Of a stretch of DNA of 25,386 nucleotides, positions 7,047 through 23,736 are shown piece after piece. The stretch is from a virus. Taxonomy: Duplodnaviria; Heunggongvirae; Uroviricota; Caudoviricetes. Numbering within the stretch: position 1 is the first letter of the stretch; each line of letters opens with the position of its first letter. The stretch lies in the IMG/VR virus record IMGVR_UViG_2563366849_000003; one strand, 5' to 3'. The position numbers were made by a program, and so were the translations under genes. The notes beneath the pieces were generated by a model. That model was not told the origin of the DNA, searched no databases, and worked only from the letters and a program-made list of their open reading frames with translations.

Positions 7047-8237
7047 TTAATTGCTGTTAACCGAAGTGACCAGATTTGCCAGGTATTTATCGGTAATACG
7101 CTGGCGCAGGGTCAGGTTTTCGAGAGGAGGCACCGGGGTATAGTCGTAGTCGATATACAGTTTTCCGGCCTTGAGGGTTTCCGCATCGTTGGATTCTTCG
7201 CTGAACCAGCAGGTCGCATCCACGATATAGCCGTTTGTTTTCAGCTCACGGAATTTGGCATTGATGCCGTCAACGATGTCGCGAATCAGCGTTGCGGTGA
7301 TAGGCTTGTCCACCGCCCACATATGCGCCTCAGCCATCGTGTCGGCCAGCACCTGCGCGGTGCGGGTGTAGTTTTCAAAGAGGAACAGCGGGTCATCAGA
7401 GCAGGTACGGTTACCCCAGAAGCGGAAACCGTCGCGGCAAATCAGCGTAGTGACGCCTGACTCGTTAAGCAGGTCAGCATCGGTGCCGGACTCCTGCAAA
7501 TCCCAGAATACAGAGGCACTGATGCCGGTAACACCGTTTACCCCGACATTGGACAGCGTTTTATGCCAGCCCTGCTCCTGGTCGATTTTAGCGCGCAGAC
7601 CCAGCGCACGGGCGGTGGCATACGCGGTGGCGGTGGTGCTGCTGACCGTATCCCATGCGAGGAAATCCGGCCAGATGACCATCAGCTCACGCTGGCTGAA
7701 ATTCTGGCGGTAGGCTTTCACCTCGGAAATGGTTTTACAGCCCCATGCGCTGATATACCCGAAAGCGCGCAGCTTCTGACAGACTGATGCCAGTGCAACA
7801 GCCACCTCTTTGGTGTCCAGTCCCGGCACGCCGAGAATACGCGGTTTAACACCGGTTACCGACTCTGCCGCCAGCAGGGCTTTCAGTCCGGTATACTGAC
7901 CGTTTTCGTCAGTGGTGCCGATGATATTGGAAACGGTCTGCGCGAGTTTCGTTTCTTCGTCGTCGCCGGTGCCGTCTTCCACACGCACGACAACGGTGAC
8001 CGGTTTTGACTGGTCGGCGATGGCCTGCAACGATGCCGCCAGCGTGCCTTTTTTACCAGCCTTTGCAATTGCGCTCTGCACATTGGTAATCAGCACCGGT
8101 TTATTGATGGGGAAGGTTTCCGCATCCGCATCGCTGGCCGTGCAGACCATGCCGACAATGGCTGTGGATACGGTGGAAATGACGCGGGTGCCGTCGTTAA
8201 TCTCCAGCACCTGCACGCCGTGATGATAGTCACTCAT
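7047..8237 (-). CDS. FI: Contractile tail sheath protein (P2 gpFI)
   Basis: 396-aa ORF (P2 FI is 396 aa); first gene of the FI-FII-E-T-U-D late operon. Confidence 0.9.
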   Translation of the reverse strand: MSDYHHGVQVLEINDGTRVISTVSTAIVGMVCTASDADAETFPINKPVLITNVQSAIAKAGKKGTLAASLQAIADQSKPVTVVVRVEDGTGDDEETKLAQTVSNIIGTTDENGQYTGLKALLAAESVTGVKPRILGVPGLDTKEVAVALASVCQKLRAFGYISAWGCKTISEVKAYRQNFSQRELMVIWPDFLAWDTVSSTTATAYATARALGLRAKIDQEQGWHKTLSNVGVNGVTGISASVFWDLQESGTDADLLNESGVTTLICRDGFRFWGNRTCSDDPLFLFENYTRTAQVLADTMAEAHMWAVDKPITATLIRDIVDGINAKFRELKTNGYIVDATCWFSEESNDAETLKAGKLYIDYDYTPVPPLENLTLRQRITDKYLANLVTSVNSN

Positions 8238-8330
8238 CCGTTTAACTCCGTGGTTAATGGGTGCAACTATTTTCCGTTGGGTAGTACATGAGACGCTATT
8301 TGACCTGGCTGGTCAGTGGATGAAACAACA

Positions 8331-8360
8331 GATAAAGAAAAGGCGGGCAATCTGCCCGCC
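8331..8360 (-). terminator. Intrinsic terminator-like hairpin (GGCGGGCA-loop-TGCCCGCC) followed by a T-run on the minus strand
   Basis: Perfect 8-bp GC-rich stem at 8342..8349 and 8353..8360 with TTTTCTTTATC following on the minus strand. It lies downstream of the 230-aa cargo gene and next to the late-promoter box. Confidence 0.5.
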
Positions 8361-8378
8361 TGTCCTGATTTGTACACA
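8361..8378 (-). promoter_or_regulatory. Candidate Ogr-dependent late promoter element (TGT-N12-ACA) for the FI operon (PF)
   Basis: TGTCCTGATTTGTACACA fits the P2/P4 late-promoter activator box TGT-N12-ACA, located about 125 bp upstream of the FI start. The -10 element is not confidently identified. Confidence 0.5.
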
Positions 8379-8496
8379 CTCATTTTCCGACTGACAATTT
8401 ACATAGCCAAAACGCTATCAAATCTGACTGCCTGTTTTGAGCGAAGAGGAACCTGAGATTGTGGTATGCTAATTTATGGGGAGCAGGTCAATTGTA

Positions 8497-9189
8497 TTAG
8501 TTATCTTTTTGCCTTTCTTTATCCCATTTCTTTACAGTGGTCTGATACCACTCTTCACGTGCTCGTTGTTCCTCTGCTCTGTCACTTGAATTATAGTTGT
8601 CTGTTTTAATTTTTTTGCTTCCCTGGGAAATCGGCCTCCAGTCTTCTCTAATCTTTTTCATCTGCTCAGCTATCTGTGTCATTGGACTCCTTGCACCTAA
8701 GTAGCTAACCCCCTCGAAAGAAGCCATATCATAAGAATACTCATTCCGCTCTCTTTCAGTTGAGCCCGGCTGTTTAGACCAGCTAATACTAACAGAATAA
8801 ACTTGATCTTTAATCTGGTCATACTTACAAAGACTGCTGTTGAGGGAATGGCCGTTTTTCAATACGCTAACCTTGCTAAATGGTATACCTTTATTTTTTC
8901 TATGTTCTGCATTAACCAGTGGGGGATTAAATCCGACTTCAATATCATAGGCTGGGGCATTTCCGGTATTAGCAATATTGATATCAAAATAAAAAGCAGC
9001 CCAAGAATTTGGTTCAAGAGTCACAACGACATGAGGTTGAACTGATGCGTCAACCATCCTTTTTGTCTCGTCTGCTAATAGCCTTGTTACTCTCCACAAG
9101 AAAAATGTAGCAACTGCTGTTAGCAATGCTGCCAAAGCGGAGATAAGTGTACTTACTGTGTTTATATGCTCTGCGATAAATTCGATCAT
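8497..9189 (-). CDS. Hypothetical membrane-anchored protein (230 aa), cargo gene at the P2 Z/fun position
   Basis: ATG with AAGGA Shine-Dalgarno; predicted N-terminal transmembrane helix (TVSTLISALAALLTAVATFFLW) and a charged C-terminal tail; AT-rich codon usage unlike the flanking tail genes. No family recognised. Confidence 0.6.
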   Translation of the reverse strand: MIEFIAEHINTVSTLISALAALLTAVATFFLWRVTRLLADETKRMVDASVQPHVVVTLEPNSWAAFYFDINIANTGNAPAYDIEVGFNPPLVNAEHRKNKGIPFSKVSVLKNGHSLNSSLCKYDQIKDQVYSVSISWSKQPGSTERERNEYSYDMASFEGVSYLGARSPMTQIAEQMKKIREDWRPISQGSKKIKTDNYNSSDRAEEQRAREEWYQTTVKKWDKERQKDN

Positions 9190-9680
9190 GAGTTGTCCTT
9201 GGGGGCGTACTAATTGTTTTCAATACTAAAATAGCGCCGGGCTTGAAAAATTGCACACTTATGGTTCGATTTACCTCAACAGTTAAGGCTTCTACTTCCC
9301 CCGTGCACCTCACCCAGCCCAAGACTGTATGAGGTCTGACAAAGAACTTCCTGACACTTGAAAACGAGGCAACGGCTAAGGTTTCTCGTAGGGCAAGGAT
9401 TGAATACGAAGCCTGTATATTGCTCCGCAAACGCTGCTGAGGGCAGTTTAAATGTTGGGCGTTTATGTAGCCTTTCACTCACCAGCATGAGTTCAATGTC
9501 TGTGAGTTACCGACAACAATATAAAGAGGGTGGCATCATCATATATCCAAGCTAGAGTCAAATCCTCCAACTGGTTTTATGATCAGTATCAATTGTTTGA
9601 TTATTGAACGTTTACGAAGCAGCACGGGAGCCATATAACTAATGGGCAGGTATAAGCCTGTATCACGAGGAATCAGTAAA

Positions 9681-9860
9681 ATGGCTGATGATAAGACCAA
9701 AATCGGTACCCCTGACAATGATTTAATAAGTATCAAACAGGATTACGAGAGACGTGATTGGGCTGAAAAGTTTGGAGTTAGCGAGGCCAAACTTGTTCAA
9801 GCCGTACAGGCTGTAGGTCATTCGGCTAAGAAAGTACAGGCATGGCTTAAAGACCATTAA
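9681..9860 (+). CDS. Small DUF3606-like protein (59 aa; an alternative upstream start at 9642 gives 72 aa)
   Basis: MADDKTKIGTPDNDL...DYERRDWAEKFGVSEAKLVQAVQAVG... resembles the DUF3606 pattern as I recall it (MADDK-type N-terminus, conserved Y and W). GAGGA Shine-Dalgarno 9 nt upstream of the 9681 ATG; intrinsic terminator immediately downstream. Confidence 0.55.
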   Translation: MADDKTKIGTPDNDLISIKQDYERRDWAEKFGVSEAKLVQAVQAVGHSAKKVQAWLKDH

Positions 9861-9865
9861 TATAT

Positions 9866-9889
9866 GAGCGCCTTTCTAGGCGCTTTTTT
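9866..9889 (+). terminator. Intrinsic terminator after the DUF3606-like gene
   Basis: Hairpin AGCGCC-TTTCTA-GGCGCT followed by TTTTTTC. Confidence 0.6.
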
Positions 9890-9912
9890 CTTTGTCCTTT
9901 GGGAGATGATTT

Positions 9913-10191
9913 ATGGCTAATAATTTATTTATTACTTACGACCTCATTAAAACGAAAGATTATGCGGCTGTGTATGATGCAATTAAATCTTTAGGAAATT
10001 GGGCTTTAACAACTGAATCGAACTGGTATGTTAACTGTAGTTACTCTGCCGAGGATGCAGCCAAAATTGTGAGGGCGGTCATGGATAGTGATGATAAGCT
10101 TATTGTTGTAGACGCAACCAATAACTCAGCTTATTGGTACAATCTCTCAGATGAAGTTAGTAACCAAATTCTGACTGAGTGGAACAAGTAA
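9913..10191 (+). CDS. Hypothetical small protein (92 aa)
   Basis: ORF with GGGAGA Shine-Dalgarno 7 nt upstream of the ATG and a strong intrinsic terminator directly after the stop. No family recognised. Confidence 0.5.
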   Translation: MANNLFITYDLIKTKDYAAVYDAIKSLGNWALTTESNWYVNCSYSAEDAAKIVRAVMDSDDKLIVVDATNNSAYWYNLSDEVSNQILTEWNK

Positions 10192-10193
10192 TT

Positions 10194-10220
10194 AAAGGGG
10201 GTGGATAGCCCCCTTTAATT
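10194..10220 (+). terminator. Intrinsic terminator after the 92-aa gene
   Basis: AAAGGGGG-TGGATAG-CCCCCTTT hairpin followed by an AT-rich stretch. Confidence 0.65.
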
Positions 10221-10410
10221 CAGAAACTATCATGATTGAAACATTAAATATACTGGGTTAATTCTTTCATCCTTGCTCCCTTGCTATATGTCCTGAAAGC
10301 GTCCTTTTTAGCCTTCTGCTCAGTATGTCCGGTAATGGCACAGAGCGGACTGCCAGATTAGGCTTTACTCTGTGCCATAGATATGTAAGCTCCCACCAGA
10401 GCTCATACAC

Positions 10411-10938
10411 TTATTGCGGCATTTCCGGCCATTCGGGATTTGCAGGATCCACACGACTGACCAGAACGCTGTAGCGTTCCCATGCTTCCAGTCGTGTGCG
10501 TTCCTCGTCTGTTGCCATATTCAGCCTGACAGCGCGTTCCAGCGGTTGGATGACTGATTCAGCTTCGGAAAGCAATGCGGCCTTTTGTGATTCGGCCTGT
10601 TGTTGTTGCTCGTCTGCCGTATAAATCCGTTTAACCACAGCTCCGTCCCTAAACATCCACTTACCGGAATCATCAGCGCAGCGGTTGGCTGTAATATCTG
10701 GAACCTCAACGACGCTATAACCTTCAGGGTTAAGCGTGGAGGCATCTTTGGTGATGGCGACAATAATATTATTTGCATCGTAAACAATCTTTATTGTGTC
10801 TGGCTGAAAGTTTTTCACTTCCTCATACCAGTTTTTTCCGTCTTCGGACCATAACCAGATAACATCAAAATTCTTTGTTAGCTGATATTGTTCTTTTGTT
10901 TTTGGATTTCCAGACTTAATATTTTTTAAATGCTGCAT
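10411..10938 (-). CDS. G: Tail fiber assembly protein (P2 gpG)
   Basis: 175-aa ORF (P2 G is 175 aa) immediately downstream of H. Confidence 0.85.
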
Positions 10939-14523: not shown

Positions 14524-14871
14524 TCAACTCACAGGGATGGTTAACGAAAGTGGCTGGCCGGTGTCGTTGTGCTGGCCGGTCAAAGTGACAGTCATTCGCC
14601 CGTCAAAACTGCGCTCAGTGGTGACGGATGACAGGGTGACGCGGGGTTCCCATTTCAGCACCGCCATGTAACAGGCGACCTTAATCTGCAACTCAAGCGC
14701 CAGAGTCTGCGGCTGGTCAATCATTGACGCCAGCAACGAGCCGTAATCACGACGCATCACCCGTGAGCCGACCGGTGTGCGCAGGATATCGCCGATACTC
14801 TGGCTGATATGCTCAAGGTCAGTGACAGTCAGGCCATCACTGCGATTCATTCCGAGATAACGCGCTGTCAT
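14524..14871 (-). CDS. W: Baseplate protein W (P2 gpW, gp25-like)
   Basis: 115-aa ORF (P2 gpW is 115 aa). Confidence 0.88.
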   Translation of the reverse strand: MTARYLGMNRSDGLTVTDLEHISQSIGDILRTPVGSRVMRRDYGSLLASMIDQPQTLALELQIKVACYMAVLKWEPRVTLSSVTTERSFDGRMTVTLTGQHNDTGQPLSLTIPVS

Positions 14872-15872
14872 AGAGGACTCCCGGTTGTGCCGCCGCTGTC
14901 GCCGGGGTGTTTATGGGTATGCAGTACCTTCCCGTTTGATGAGAGTTCACCGCCGGTGTGTTCAATGTTGCCGCGCATCGTCCCGCCCTTCTGCACTTCC
15001 AGCGTGCCGGTAATCAGCCTGTTGGTGCAGACCACCTCCGGTGTGTCCAGGGTAACGCGGGTTGATGCTTTCACCGTGACCACCGGCACCGTGGCAGTAA
15101 CAGAATCAGAAGCCGTCACGCTGGCCGTTTTAATTCCGCTTACCGTGAGTGCACTGGTTTCGGGTTCATACTCAATCACCGCCCCGTCAGGGAAACGGAT
15201 ATGCAGGGCATCCGCCGACGCAGACGGCGCGGGGTTATCACCGGAATAAATCCCCGGCAGAACGAACGCTGTGTCGAGTTCACCGCCCACGGCCAGAATC
15301 AGCACCTGTTCCCCCTCGGAAGGTGCCCACCACGTGCGCGAACGTCCGGCGCGATGGGTCAGCCACTGAAGCCAGTCGGTGCACATGCCGCCGGTCTGCA
15401 CACGGCAGCGACCGGCGTTAAGGTCGGTTTCGACGATAATGCCGGTGCGTATCATGTTGCGCAGTGCGCGCGCGAGTTTCGCACTGGCATCCACACCGCG
15501 ATAACGTTCATAAAGCGACGCGGTCGCCATCGCACACACGGCGCGCTCGTAGTAAAAAACTTTGATGCTTTCACCGTCGATGTCGTCCGCCGGGACGTCC
15601 GCCAGACGCGTAAAACCGGCGGCAATTTTCTGTTCGCGGTACTCGTACAGCTCCGCATTCGTCTCCGCCATGCCTGACTTGATGGCCTCACGCAGACGGG
15701 CGGGGGCGACGGTCTGCTCAAGGCGCATACGTTCCCGGACGCGCTTCGGGTCGATATCGGGAAAAAAGAACGTGTTTTTAATCACCGGCTCGTCGCCTGC
15801 CGGTTGCGGGATGACCACCGTACCCTCACCGGACACGGGAGCCTCCTTTCGCGGAATAATCAGCGTCATCAT
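14868..15872 (-). CDS. In-frame fusion ORF: head completion protein L (N-terminal part) joined to baseplate spike protein V (C-terminal part)
   Basis: Single 354-aa ORF (first Met at 15932; probable start MMTLIIPRK at 15872 with a GAGGTGG Shine-Dalgarno). The N-terminus reads like P2 gpL, the C-terminus (...GNIEHTGGELSSNGKVLHTHKHPGDSGGTTGSPL) like P2 gpV. In P2, L and V are separated by X, Y, K, lysA/B/C, R and S, all absent here. The junction is inferred near 15450..15530. Confidence 0.6.
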   Translation of the reverse strand: MMTLIIPRKEAPVSGEGTVVIPQPAGDEPVIKNTFFFPDIDPKRVRERMRLEQTVAPARLREAIKSGMAETNAELYEYREQKIAAGFTRLADVPADDIDGESIKVFYYERAVCAMATASLYERYRGVDASAKLARALRNMIRTGIIVETDLNAGRCRVQTGGMCTDWLQWLTHRAGRSRTWWAPSEGEQVLILAVGGELDTAFVLPGIYSGDNPAPSASADALHIRFPDGAVIEYEPETSALTVSGIKTASVTASDSVTATVPVVTVKASTRVTLDTPEVVCTNRLITGTLEVQKGGTMRGNIEHTGGELSSNGKVLHTHKHPGDSGGTTGSPL

Positions 15873-15971
15873 GACCACCTCTGAAAAGTCGGGCGGTGGA
15901 CGCCGGTGCAGTGTCAGGTGATTCACCCTCACTGACCGGCGTGCCGCCCTGGCGCGGGGCGCATTCGGTTG

Positions 15972-21737: not shown

Positions 21738-22310
21738 TTATTTTTTCATATTGTATATAAAGTCACAAATATGCACCAGTGATAATCTGTTATAGTTTTC
21801 CAATGTAAACACAGGATAATTATAGCAAATTTCAGGAGGAGGCAATTGCGAGCGAACAGTTGTTTTTTTAGCTGATTGCTGCCTCCTCGATAATTTACTT
21901 ATTACACCAATGTAATCCACTTTTCTTGACAAATGCCCATGTAAATTCAATACAGAATATAGCCACTTACAAAAATGAATGCCAGTAACTACCTGTTTAG
22001 CCGCACCATTTGAGTTATAAGATTTGAGATCTATTACGATAAAATAATCTACGTCTTTGTGCGACGTAACAAAAATTCCATCACAAACAGAGCATACTCC
22101 TGGTAAAGCAGAAGATTTTAAAAATTTCCAGACTGGTTTAGAAATACTATTAGAATCTAGCGAAAATCCATAGATACCATTTCCGTTTACCAGTAATTTT
22201 TTATTTGTAGCACCTGGGTTCTCTTCGCATACAACCCAGCATTCCTGCTCTCGCATTAATTGAAATGTAGGATCGATGCAACTTTGTATTACATTGATAA
22301 TATTACTCAT
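21738..22310 (-). CDS. Hypothetical Cys/His-rich protein (190 aa), partner of the upstream ATPase; candidate effector
   Basis: The start ATG (22310..22308) overlaps the last codons of the ATPase gene (GATGAGTAA), indicating translational coupling. AT-rich. Contains CxxxC (res 24-28), CxxC (73-76), EE (29-30) and DVD (86-88) motifs. No family confidently recognised. Confidence 0.6.
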   Translation of the reverse strand: MSNIINVIQSCIDPTFQLMREQECWVVCEENPGATNKKLLVNGNGIYGFSLDSNSISKPVWKFLKSSALPGVCSVCDGIFVTSHKDVDYFIVIDLKSYNSNGAAKQVVTGIHFCKWLYSVLNLHGHLSRKVDYIGVISKLSRRQQSAKKTTVRSQLPPPEICYNYPVFTLENYNRLSLVHICDFIYNMKK

Positions 22311-23736
22311 CTACATCCTCACTATCAGAGGCATTCTCCACCAAGGAGTAATATATTTCATCATTATCGTCATTAATGGCATTAATTACTTCATCAAAAG
22401 TTACAGCATTAATCCCTTCATTTGACTTCTGCATTTCATTGACTGAGCCATTATCAAATAGATACGCAGCGACTAGGTTAGAGTCTAAAATTGAGTCGAT
22501 GCTAATCCCTTGCTTCTGCATGATAGCGTTTCGTTTTTCAATCATATTTTCAGAAACGCCATGCAACATAATCAAGCTATTGATTTCTTTCACAAAATAA
22601 TCACTGTGAGTACTAACAATAACCCGAATACCAGAGTTAACTAGCTTTGCTAAAAATCTTGCAATTACTCGCTGATTTGACGGGTGTAAATTTAACTCGG
22701 GTTCGTCAATCATTAAAATATCACCAGTTTTTGCTTGGTGCTCTAAATAAAACCACAGGCCAAACAAACTTTTAACAGTGGATGACGATAAATGAAGTTC
22801 AATTTTACTTGCAGGTGTCTTACCTTTCTTATACGTTGAAAAATAAATCTGCCCTTCAGGATCAACTGAATATTTTCCTGAAATTATTTTTTTTACTTCT
22901 TCTGCTAATTTATGAAATTGGCCATTTTTATTTTTCCTATTAACCTTAATTTCATTAAGCCAGTCTATGTAATTTGCTATAGGAGCAGAATACTTAGACT
23001 TCATTACATCCATTAATAGTGAGTTCAGATCGAACTGTTCTTTTGAGGCGTGGTGCAATAACGCAGTTCTTCTGGAACTTAATTCATTGAAAAAAAGGTG
23101 CAAGCCATTTCTTTCTGCGGGAATTAAAAATGCTGGGCTTTCATCATACTCTATCTTTAATAACTGACTTAGAGTTAAGTTTATAAACCCATCAATTCTG
23201 GGGAAAGCAGAATCTAGCAGCGTCATTTGTATGATATTGCTATTTTTATCTTTGGATAATAGCATTACTTCTTTTTTGCCGGTTCCTATGACGAGGCTAA
23301 CATCCAATTTTTTTTCATAAACACTTGATACTAATGATTCTTCATCTATAACCCAGTCAAATGTTGAATTAGAAAAAATTTCCTTATCATTAGTGTTGAA
23401 TACATCTTTAAGCATTAAAGATGAATCTTTATTAAATTCTCTTTTGATTAACGTAAAATTATCTTTTATCCACTCAATTACATCTAATTCAAACTTACCA
23501 TTTTCACGAAGAGTTTTGGCAAAATTTGCAACTTGAGGCAATTTTAAAGATGGTGATGGCATATTTAGGAAGCCATATAACCCATACATAACCCATGTTT
23601 TACCAGTATTATTTTTTCCGCATAAAAGCGTTAAAGGTTTTGCATTAATTTCTCCTGTAGAGATACACCCAATGTTTTTAAATGAAAATCTCCATGATGC
23701 TAATTTTTTTACGTTAATTTCGCTTTGCTTTTTCAT
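22303..23736 (-). CDS. ABC/OLD-type P-loop ATPase (AAA_15/AAA_21-like), 477 aa; candidate anti-phage defence ATPase
   Basis: Walker A GKNNTGKT (res 40-47), signature-like LSSSTVKS (316-323), Walker B/D-loop DILMIDEPELNLHP (339-352), H-loop STHS (375-378), acidic C-terminal tail; AAGGAA Shine-Dalgarno; AT-rich. Confidence 0.7.
   Translation of the reverse strand: MKKQSEINVKKLASWRFSFKNIGCISTGEINAKPLTLLCGKNNTGKTWVMYGLYGFLNMPSPSLKLPQVANFAKTLRENGKFELDVIEWIKDNFTLIKREFNKDSSLMLKDVFNTNDKEIFSNSTFDWVIDEESLVSSVYEKKLDVSLVIGTGKKEVMLLSKDKNSNIIQMTLLDSAFPRIDGFINLTLSQLLKIEYDESPAFLIPAERNGLHLFFNELSSRRTALLHHASKEQFDLNSLLMDVMKSKYSAPIANYIDWLNEIKVNRKNKNGQFHKLAEEVKKIISGKYSVDPEGQIYFSTYKKGKTPASKIELHLSSSTVKSLFGLWFYLEHQAKTGDILMIDEPELNLHPSNQRVIARFLAKLVNSGIRVIVSTHSDYFVKEINSLIMLHGVSENMIEKRNAIMQKQGISIDSILDSNLVAAYLFDNGSVNEMQKSNEGINAVTFDEVINAINDDNDEIYYSLVENASDSEDVDE

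Follow-up and report, generated by a model that had tools for sequence, protein, structure and literature searches.

Do the genes carried between G and FI of a P2-like prophage form one conflict system, or are they separate accessory genes that have come to share a slot? The question is raised by IMG/VR virus record IMGVR_UViG_2563366849_000003 (Caudoviricetes), a stretch of 25,386 nucleotides (nt) that was analyzed as a whole and is called the window here. Three intact genes occupy the slot: one on the minus strand for a membrane protein of 230 amino acids (aa), p230, and two on the plus strand, for a DUF3606 protein and for a 92-aa protein, p92. Comparisons with other loci show that this cargo is, as judged from gene neighborhoods, a mosaic of independent accessory genes and not one three-gene system.

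A mosaic of genes in the Z/fun slot

The AT-rich stretch between FI and G is foreign cargo in the P2 Z/fun slot. FI (7047-8237, minus strand; sheath Pfam domains) lies on one side and G (10411-10938, minus strand; Caudo_TAP) on the other, and these flanks are conserved among P2-like coliphages that carry different cargo. GC content is 0.39-0.44 over 8.2-10.4 kb and 0.55-0.58 in the flanks; the cargo at 8449-10335 (~1.9 kb) has 40.9% GC, compared with 56.3% in the FI gene. The comparison with the empty site of Yersinia phage P37 suggests that the cargo is dispensable. An initial annotation had recognized the position as the variable Z/fun hotspot and had assigned to it about 2.2 kb of AT-rich DNA. 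Gene calls, conserved flanks and published work all agree with the position, and the low GC content stands, but alignment with P2, Wphi and vB_EcoM-12474III, which all have other genes at the slot, confines the variable part to about 8449-10335; both flanks belong to the conserved backbone. The slot has been described as a variable, defense-enriched hotspot (PMC9519451; bioRxiv 10.1101/2024.10.15.618418; PMC13586616), and three validated PD systems came from it (PMC9519451). Its flanks were found in 1,029 of 5,426 complete Escherichia coli genomes, and at least 80% of the present region occurs in about 99 of the 5,426.

The independence of the genes can be read from their relatives. In all 68 loci with p230 relatives of less than 90% identity, FI, G, DUF3606, p92 and the endonuclease described below were absent within 2.5 kb. 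The DUF3606-p92 pair occurs without p230 beside a DUF6538-type integrase in an E. coli integrative element (locus L017), and p92 follows a different upstream gene in Hafnia and Citrobacter and a DUF2188 gene in Pantoea. The initial annotation had treated the membrane protein and the two divergent small genes as a single arrangement, a picture that these distributions contradict from both sides.

Two gene stumps explain the odd spacing of the genes. The gap of 491 nt between p230 and the DUF3606 gene is indeed long, as had been noticed (about 450 bp in the initial annotation), but it is largely a decayed Endonuclease VII gene and not a regulatory oddity. The stump aligns to residues 98-141 of an intact E. 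coli homologue at 58% identity; this homologue scores 27.5 bits for PF02945, above the Pfam threshold of 23.6, and the stump in the window is non-functional. The gene is near complete in a Pantoea leporis locus (L029) and full length in three divergent P2-like loci (L086, L087, L106); therefore, about 312 bp of its 5' part have been deleted in the window. The second stump is the 3' end of an integrase gene. Positions 9570-10339 are 79% identical to element L017, in which DUF3606 and p92 are convergent with a DUF6538-type tyrosine integrase, and the homologous stretch extends into the 3' end of the integrase gene there. Comparison of the pieces at the DNA level gives the ancestral order p230 (minus), Endonuclease VII, DUF3606 and p92 (plus), and integrase stump.

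The three intact genes are under purifying selection, as judged from ratios of non-synonymous to synonymous substitution rates (dN/dS) of about 0.0-0.5. Of the 20 pairwise comparisons that yielded a ratio, 19 had values well below 1. Values for the DUF3606 gene were 0.00-0.24 and those for p92 were 0.08-0.48. For p230 they were 0.10-0.28 in eight of nine comparisons; the ninth, between copies of 99.1% identity, gave 1.29 from very few substitutions.

The cargo is a portable, partly decayed mosaic of "moron" genes in the Z/fun hotspot, and we favor, with about even confidence, the reading that its intact genes are kept for the benefit of the lysogen and probably act separately. At least three independently travelling pieces have been assembled into the cassette. 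One is a stand-alone p230 gene with its own upstream region, another an Endonuclease VII gene that is now a stump, and the third a DUF3606-hairpin-p92 unit that was broken out of an integrative element at the end nearest the integrase and has kept the last ~35 codons of that integrase. The three intact genes would have been retained as conflict genes expressed in the lysogen, most likely with separate actions rather than as parts of one system.

Ends, portability and earlier records of the cassette

The cassette measures about 1.95 kb, from 8438 to about 10380. Island homology starts at exactly 8438 in a Pantoea chromosome, a lambdoid prophage and metagenome loci. In the chromosome of Pantoea leporis (L029), the window from 8438 to about 10342-10386 is present at 94-97% identity, between a small tyrosine-recombinase pseudogene and budABC. 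In a lambdoid prophage of E. coli D217-5 (L174), the cassette lies between replication-region genes (DUF977, DUF1627) and hokD, and this copy encodes the identical DUF3606 accession, WP_001406733, which is annotated in both P2 and lambdoid contexts. Among near-identical copies sampled from IMG/VR and metagenomes, about one third lie in a non-P2 context. This distribution shows that the cassette has evidently moved between unrelated prophages and chromosomes.

Short repeats are found at the ends. The exact AGAGCGGAC direct repeat is present at both ends in seven loci of P2 context (L073-L077, L094 and L097), P2-like phages with other cargo have imperfect repeat copies at both borders, and a diverged version of the right-hand hairpin closes the cassette in the lambdoid prophage. 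The repeat pattern suggests insertion or exchange of the cassette at a short core. No unoccupied site with a single AGAGCGGAC copy was found, and microhomology-mediated illegitimate recombination is a possible alternative way of joining. When the window was searched for the 15-nt junction motif with up to three mismatches, only a chance-level hit appeared elsewhere, because the left copy carries an indel.

Like the products of integron-like or att-type exchange, the cassette is a discrete unit: its end points agree in three unrelated contexts, short direct repeats flank it and one end has a hairpin. It differs from them in having no integron integrase, attC consensus or recombinase gene, only an integrase stump. 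A more specific proposal, which we consider rather doubtful, would have the cassette move by site-specific recombination at the AGAGCGGAC core next to the hairpin, with p230 as a widespread single-gene, membrane-anchored anti-phage protein whose cytoplasmic sensor is of the immunoglobulin-like (Ig-like) type and p92 as an acidic decoy or effector of Cas2 fold.

Small tyrosine recombinases of about 185-200 aa were observed near p230 or p92 slots in three elements (L029, 1560-2168; L013, 4376-4927; L022, 3166-3732). The one in P. leporis lies directly beside the left end of the cassette and has an in-frame stop codon.

The sequence itself is not new. It has been public since the early 2000s (Nilsson et al. 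2004), and uncharacterized cargo in a known hotspot is the expected kind of object. Over its whole length and at the same G-FI position, the 2.17-kb region is 99.3% identical to GenBank AJ512682 (P2-EC53 Z-region, "ORF1, putative lysogenic conversion protein") and 99.7% identical to phage R18C (MN016939). Only ORF1 is annotated in AJ512682. The R18C paper deals only with the two small open reading frames (ORFs) in the fun(Z) position; it classes them as morons without an assigned function, mentions the DUF3606 annotation and gives no functional clue (PMC6823313). In AJ512682 (L001), the DUF3606 frame at 1473-1646 is split across frames, probably by sequencing errors, which may explain why ORF1 alone was annotated there. 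Neither record, as read here, annotates the Endonuclease VII and integrase stumps, the Cas2-like p92 fold, the copies outside P2 or the independence of the modules, and searches of the literature for the protein accessions, for DUF8453 and for P2-EC53 gave no results. What is new here is descriptive: module independence, the two stumps, the p92 fold, the architecture of p230, and the presence of the cassette in unrelated contexts with repeat-flanked ends.

The membrane protein and the two small genes

The initial annotation had described p230 as a minus-strand protein with one N-terminal transmembrane (TM) segment and a charged C-terminus, and this description is accurate. Its sole hydrophobic segment comprises residues 12-32 and is unusually conserved (TAVATFFLWRVT), and the last 65 residues include 16 lysines or arginines (K/R) and 12 aspartates or glutamates (D/E). 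The protein matches PHROG 11802 over its full length (E = 3e-147, residues 1-230/230). The identical protein is entered in RefSeq as "DUF8453 domain-containing", a domain for which the local Pfam copy gave no match. In the AlphaFold2 model (predicted local distance difference test, pLDDT, 82.6), a long helix at the N-terminus is followed by an Ig-like sandwich of seven strands (residues 54-154) and then by two charged helices. The charge beside the TM helix is -2 before it and +1 after it, and the tail is basic; therefore, an N-out/C-in topology is predicted, in which p230 would be anchored in the inner membrane with its short N-terminus outside and the Ig-like domain and basic tail in the cytoplasm.

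The p230 family is large, with 1,719 representatives at E <= 1e-3 and at least 1,700 clusters at 50% identity. Among the best 150 of the 1,719 representatives, nearly all are about 100-250 aa long and no domain fusions were seen. Relatives stand alone beside integrases in elements of Xanthomonas, Erythrobacter and Klebsiella. Integrases, resolvases and transposases are found around 39 distant p230 loci, as are restriction-modification genes of the type IIG/ISP and BsuBI kinds, PtuA, NsnA, AriA-like ATPases and several PADLOC candidate (PDC) families.

Copies of p230 also occur in the E. coli leuX transfer RNA (tRNA) island (L066, L067), where the gene and that of a serine recombinase are divergent, with a DEAD/DEAH helicase nearby. 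The approximately 150 nt upstream of p230 are 81-86% identical to these copies, the same level as the coding sequence. A structured RNA leader in this upstream region was considered and rejected: the fold has z = -0.8, conservation is no better than that of the coding sequence, and the stem shows only one-sided (wobble) changes. Rfam gave no match in 9190-9345. In one strain, IS3 interrupts the leuX-island copy, which has an AbiJ-NTD4 protein next to it, and many of the "partial" E. coli proteins of this family may be disrupted leuX-type copies.

P22 SieA, T4 Imm and lactococcal Sie2009 are single-gene, membrane-anchored proteins of superinfection exclusion or abortive infection. Like them, p230 is the product of a small single prophage gene and has an N-terminal anchor and no enzymatic domain; it also occupies a moron slot and moves between mobile elements on its own. 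The likeness is one of context: no sequence or fold relationship to any of the three was detected, and the soluble part of p230 is an Ig-like sandwich, predicted to be cytoplasmic. Tentatively, and with somewhat less than even confidence, p230 may be a single-gene factor of exclusion or abortive infection that acts at the membrane stage against superinfection.

Two small plus-strand genes are present, as had been proposed. The first, however, had been started at 9642 (72 aa), and its start belongs at 9681 (59 aa): the upstream ATG is absent from the homologous locus, and both the PHROG profile and RefSeq use the short form. The 59-aa product scores 65.3 bits for PF12244 against a cut-off of 24.3, over profile positions 1-54/54, and by this match it is a bona fide member of DUF3606, a family without known function. 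It would act as a small helical partner or regulator.

The fold of p92 is predicted with high confidence to be a Cas2/VapD-like ferredoxin fold. The model has the order beta1-alpha1-beta2-beta3-alpha2-beta4, with beta1 ending in a conserved Asp. The invariant Y9-D10-L11 is at the position of the catalytic Asp of Cas2, and S36, D58 and D61 are also invariant. Cas2 within Cas1-Cas2 complexes is among the best specific structural matches, at 8-17% sequence identity; ACT-like and other ferredoxin folds score similarly. The score for Pfam Cas2 (PF09827) was 12.7 bits against a threshold of 23.8 (E = 0.15), and a profile search of the sequences in the Protein Data Bank (PDB) retrieved no Cas2 or VapD. 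With 7 K/R and 13 D/E, p92 is acidic, which is unexpected for a nucleic-acid-binding enzyme and calls for caution, so that any nuclease activity is putative. Compared with the Cas2, VapD and BPSL1038 nucleases, p92 is known here from its predicted fold, is below both the Pfam and the PADLOC thresholds for Cas2, is acidic instead of basic, and has no Cas1 among its commonest neighbor families. No Cas1 domain was among the 25 commonest Pfam families beside 32 p92 loci and no cas genes are in the island; no search for CRISPR arrays was made.

The p92 family is broad and constant in length, and it occurs in many mobile elements across Proteobacteria and beyond. In 35 genomes/species, no recurrent partner gene of p92 was detected. 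The neighbors of the 32 p92 loci include integrases, resolvases, TniB, ParA, ImmA-like peptidases, Thoeris, type III restriction-modification, E1-E2 and capP. DUF3606 precedes p92 only in E. coli and Pantoea; in Hafnia and Citrobacter the upstream gene encodes a 41-aa lysine-rich protein, and in another Pantoea it encodes DUF2188 (vapX itself was not searched for). Throughout the Enterobacterales loci, a small upstream gene and a hairpin precede p92, the family of the partner varies, and the members of the pair diverge unequally; relative to L017, protein identity is 96.6% for DUF3606 and 76% for p92.

The initial annotation had given each small gene its own intrinsic terminator. The hairpin at 9866-9885 is indeed terminator-like (folding energy -16.5 kcal/mol, z = -2.7), but it is kept as an element upstream of p92. 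An equivalent hairpin with a T tract lies about 25-35 nt from the p92 start codon in eight Enterobacterales loci (the window, L017, L022 and L030-L034) whose upstream genes are unrelated. Since it always stands before p92, either p92 is apparently made only by terminator read-through, or the hairpin belongs to the p92 leader. The other proposed terminator, at 10190-10220, is palindromic and bidirectional. The only Rfam hit on the island falls on this palindrome and is far below the family threshold.

Table 1. Positions of cargo genes, gene stumps, nucleic-acid elements and flanks in the window (RBS, ribosome-binding site)
Feature	Position	Strand	Basis or remark
Backbone flank, not cargo	8238..8448	minus	95-96% identical in P2-like phages with other cargo
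PF late promoter region: transcription start site ~8261-8263, Ogr/activator site ~8306-8334	within 8238-8448		By homology to annotated P2 record AF063097
Hairpin and T-run terminator ending the V-G operon	8341-8361		Terminator scan; P37 comparison
Left cassette junction: TGAGCGAAGAG then AGAGGAAC, degenerate copy of the 9-nt repeat AGAGCGGAC	8438..8452	plus	Shared start of homology
p230, 230 aa: N-terminal TM helix, Ig-like beta-sandwich, two charged C-terminal helices (predicted)	8497..9189	minus	PHROG 11802; DUF8453 in RefSeq
p230 upstream leader/promoter region, good RBS AAGGA before ATG	9190..9345	minus	Conserved in leuX-island copies
Endonuclease VII-family (PF02945) pseudogene stump, last 45 codons	9415..9555	plus	tblastn with intact E. 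coli homologue, E = 7e-7
Upstream region of DUF3606 gene, conserved	9570..9680	plus	L017 homology begins at 9570; three-way alignment
Inverted repeat ACTGGT-N6-ATCAGT	9570-9587		In DUF3606 upstream region
Promoter-like TTTACG-N17-TATAAC	9611-9639		In DUF3606 upstream region; putative promoter
RBS GAGGAA	within 9570-9680		Upstream of DUF3606 gene
DUF3606 protein, 59 aa	9681..9860	plus	Pfam PF12244, PHROG 10779, RefSeq WP_001406733
GC-rich hairpin and T run (terminator or attenuator), 20-47 nt upstream of p92 start	9866..9893	plus	Terminator scan
p92, 92 aa, acidic, predicted Cas2/VapD-like ferredoxin fold, invariant Y9-D10-L11 at end of strand beta1	9913..10191	plus	PHROG 1090
Perfect 12-bp palindromic hairpin AATTAAAGGGGG-N7-CCCCCTTTAATT, likely bidirectional terminator	10190..10220	none	Terminator scan
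DUF6538-type tyrosine integrase stump, 3' end, ~35 codons	10241..10345	minus	tblastn with L017 integrase, E = 2e-11
Right-hand flank hairpin TGGCACAGAG...CTCTGTGCCA, containing exact AGAGCGGAC at 10342-10350	10336..10378	plus	Hotspot flank comparison

The rest of the window is P2-like. The late genes on the minus strand are in the order ogr, D, U, T, E, FII, FI, G, H, I, J, W ... M, N, O, and P and Q follow O on the plus strand. The segment 10336-10410 is conserved hotspot flank. In the empty site of Yersinia phage P37, the counterpart of the hairpin at 8341-8361 comes directly after the G stop codon; therefore, the cargo separates G from the terminator that ancestrally ended the operon. The right end of the prophage (ogr, 1635-1916) adjoins a host peptidase-U32 gene (1-1362) at the left end of the window, which therefore covers the junction of prophage and chromosome. 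A 354-aa ORF (14868-15932, minus strand) fuses the head-completion domain of gpL (Phage_GPL) with the baseplate spike gpV (Phage_base_V and Phage_spike), and the gene after it is the small terminase M; thus the L-to-V block of P2 (X, Y, K, lysA-C, R, S, orf30) is missing. With this gpL::gpV fusion the host prophage looks defective, judging from its gene content, though both hotspot cargos have been kept. The other cargo, at the second P2 hotspot beside the portal gene Q, is a two-gene PD-T4-4 defense system (21738-23736, minus strand) in an AT-rich block of about 21.4-24 kb; PD-T4-4_A (AAA_15 ATPase) was matched at E = 2e-112 and PD-T4-4_B at E = 1e-15.

Explanations for the cargo and their implications

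In the favored reading of a moron mosaic, p230 would be a factor of exclusion or abortive infection at the membrane stage of superinfection. The level of p92 would be held low by its position behind the terminator hairpin, and p92 itself would act either as a small effector of the nuclease type or, in view of its acidity, as a decoy that binds proteins. From their genomic setting, the three genes may plausibly serve against phages or in some other conflict. The initial annotation had likewise proposed accessory conflict functions and had stated that none of the three is a phage structural gene. The latter statement is upheld, since no similarity to P2 morphogenesis or lysis proteins was found for the three proteins in Pfam, PHROG or the comparison with Fun(Z). 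The former gains from the intact genes, the purifying selection and the relatives beside mobile-element and defense genes, but PADLOC, one of the searches that had been recommended, matched none of the three proteins. Other occupants of the slot, namely Fun(Z) of P2, gp44 of Wphi, an SMEK-domain protein and the PD systems (PMC9519451), have the same hotspot and flanks and are non-essential, lysogen-side cargo, as here. In sequence, the cargo proteins resemble neither Fun(Z) nor gp44 nor the SMEK protein, and PADLOC gave no hit even though its library names PD-type models. Fun(Z) is a single 528-aa protein encoded on the strand opposite to the late genes, and blastp of the cargo proteins against it gave no hit better than E = 3.9.

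Several observations weigh against this reading. None of the three proteins has a significant match in PADLOC, NCBIfam or, by sequence, solved structures. With PADLOC-DB v2.0.0, p230 had no hit, DUF3606 reached E = 0.027 to PDC-M03B and p92 reached E = 0.019 to Cas2_II, all insignificant; DUF3606 was the only family recovered across PADLOC, NCBIfam and Pfam, and searches of PDB sequences, made with the single sequences of the three proteins and with the p92 profile, gave nothing significant. The topology of p230 has the positive-inside rule as its sole basis. The neighbor lists of p230 and p92 relatives lack a matched control and are therefore supportive, not decisive, and some p92 relatives stand beside housekeeping genes such as nrdAB. 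A strict scan of the island for sigma-70 consensus gave no promoter. The two gene stumps are parts of the cassette in decay. At the ends, the left repeat copy in the window (8445-8452, AGAGGAAC) is degenerate and the right copy exact, and the inverted-repeat relation of the flanks that is annotated in AJ512682 is not significant (local alignment score 25, compared with 21 +/- 4 for shuffled sequences).

The rival explanations fare less well. In near-identical copies of the cassette, in P2, lambdoid and Pantoea contexts, the three genes are adjacent and always together, as would be expected of one integrated defense system in which a membrane effector, p230, is controlled or triggered by two divergent small proteins. 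Such a system is nevertheless very improbable. Within 2.5 kb, neither small gene is present at any of the 68 loci of distant p230 relatives, no p230 homologue is among the recurring neighbor families of 32 p92 loci of other genomes, and the E. coli integrative element has DUF3606-p92 without p230. Moreover, an unrelated Endonuclease VII gene originally stood between p230 and the small genes, and p230, with 230 residues and an Ig-like domain, is unlike a GhoT-type small peptide. A serious but still unlikely idea concerns only the small genes, which may form a VapXD-like toxin-antitoxin or addiction module in which p92 is a nuclease toxin and DUF3606 an antitoxin kept in excess by attenuation at the terminator. 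The Cas2/VapD-type fold, in which beta1 ends in an invariant Asp, and the cluster of acidic residues D58, D61 and D67 would suit such a toxin, a small gene followed by a hairpin and T tract lies ahead of p92 in all eight Enterobacterales loci, and the swapping of partners (DUF3606, the 41-aa K-rich protein, DUF2188) resembles the mix-and-match of toxins and antitoxins. It is opposed by the acidity of p92, which is unusual in a nucleic-acid-binding toxin, by the sub-threshold Cas2 score, and by the many distant p92 loci without a recurring small upstream partner; the two genes, in addition, neither overlap nor are translationally coupled, and their unequal identities to L017 point to different histories. 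An anti-defense protein of mobile elements, not protective of the host, is another candidate role for p92, either as a Cas2 mimic that would poison spacer acquisition by Cas1-Cas2 or as some other acidic decoy. Its small size, acidity and very constant length, its spread over many types of mobile element in Proteobacteria beside integrases and transposases and with no fixed partner, and the structural matches to Cas2 in Cas1-Cas2 complexes are all consistent with this role; it is improbable given the 8-17% identity in those matches and a location in a prophage slot known for defense cargo instead of an early or leading region.

Two further explanations deny the lysogen any part in keeping the cargo. 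Hitch-hiking or decaying DNA of no current use to phage or host would fit the loss of two of the five original genes to stumps, a defective host prophage with its gpL::gpV fusion, and an island in which a strong promoter was not detected. The probability of this is small, because the three ORFs are intact in essentially all copies examined and have dN/dS of about 0.0-0.5, the p230 and p92 families are large and conserved in length and sequence across phyla, and copies of the cassette that are 95-100% identical survive in three or more genomic contexts. A service to the lytic cycle of the phage, in tail-fiber assembly, host range or lysis, is scarcely credible: the cassette does lie within the late tail-gene region, and p230 points the same way as the late operons and stands upstream of the terminator that ancestrally closed the V operon, but the slot is empty in Yersinia phage P37 and holds unrelated genes in other P2-like phages, the cassette also occurs in a lambdoid prophage and a bacterial chromosome, and similarity to structural or lysis families or to Fun(Z) is lacking.

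That one cassette with base-identical ends is found in a lambdoid prophage and a Pantoea chromosome as well as in a P2-like myovirus is relevant to the rapid swapping of defense cargo at prophage hotspots, for which the recombination process was left open by a recent study (PMC13586616). If p230 or p92 proves to be an anti-phage or anti-defense protein, two broad families, neither of which is recognized by current defense-finding libraries, would gain a function.

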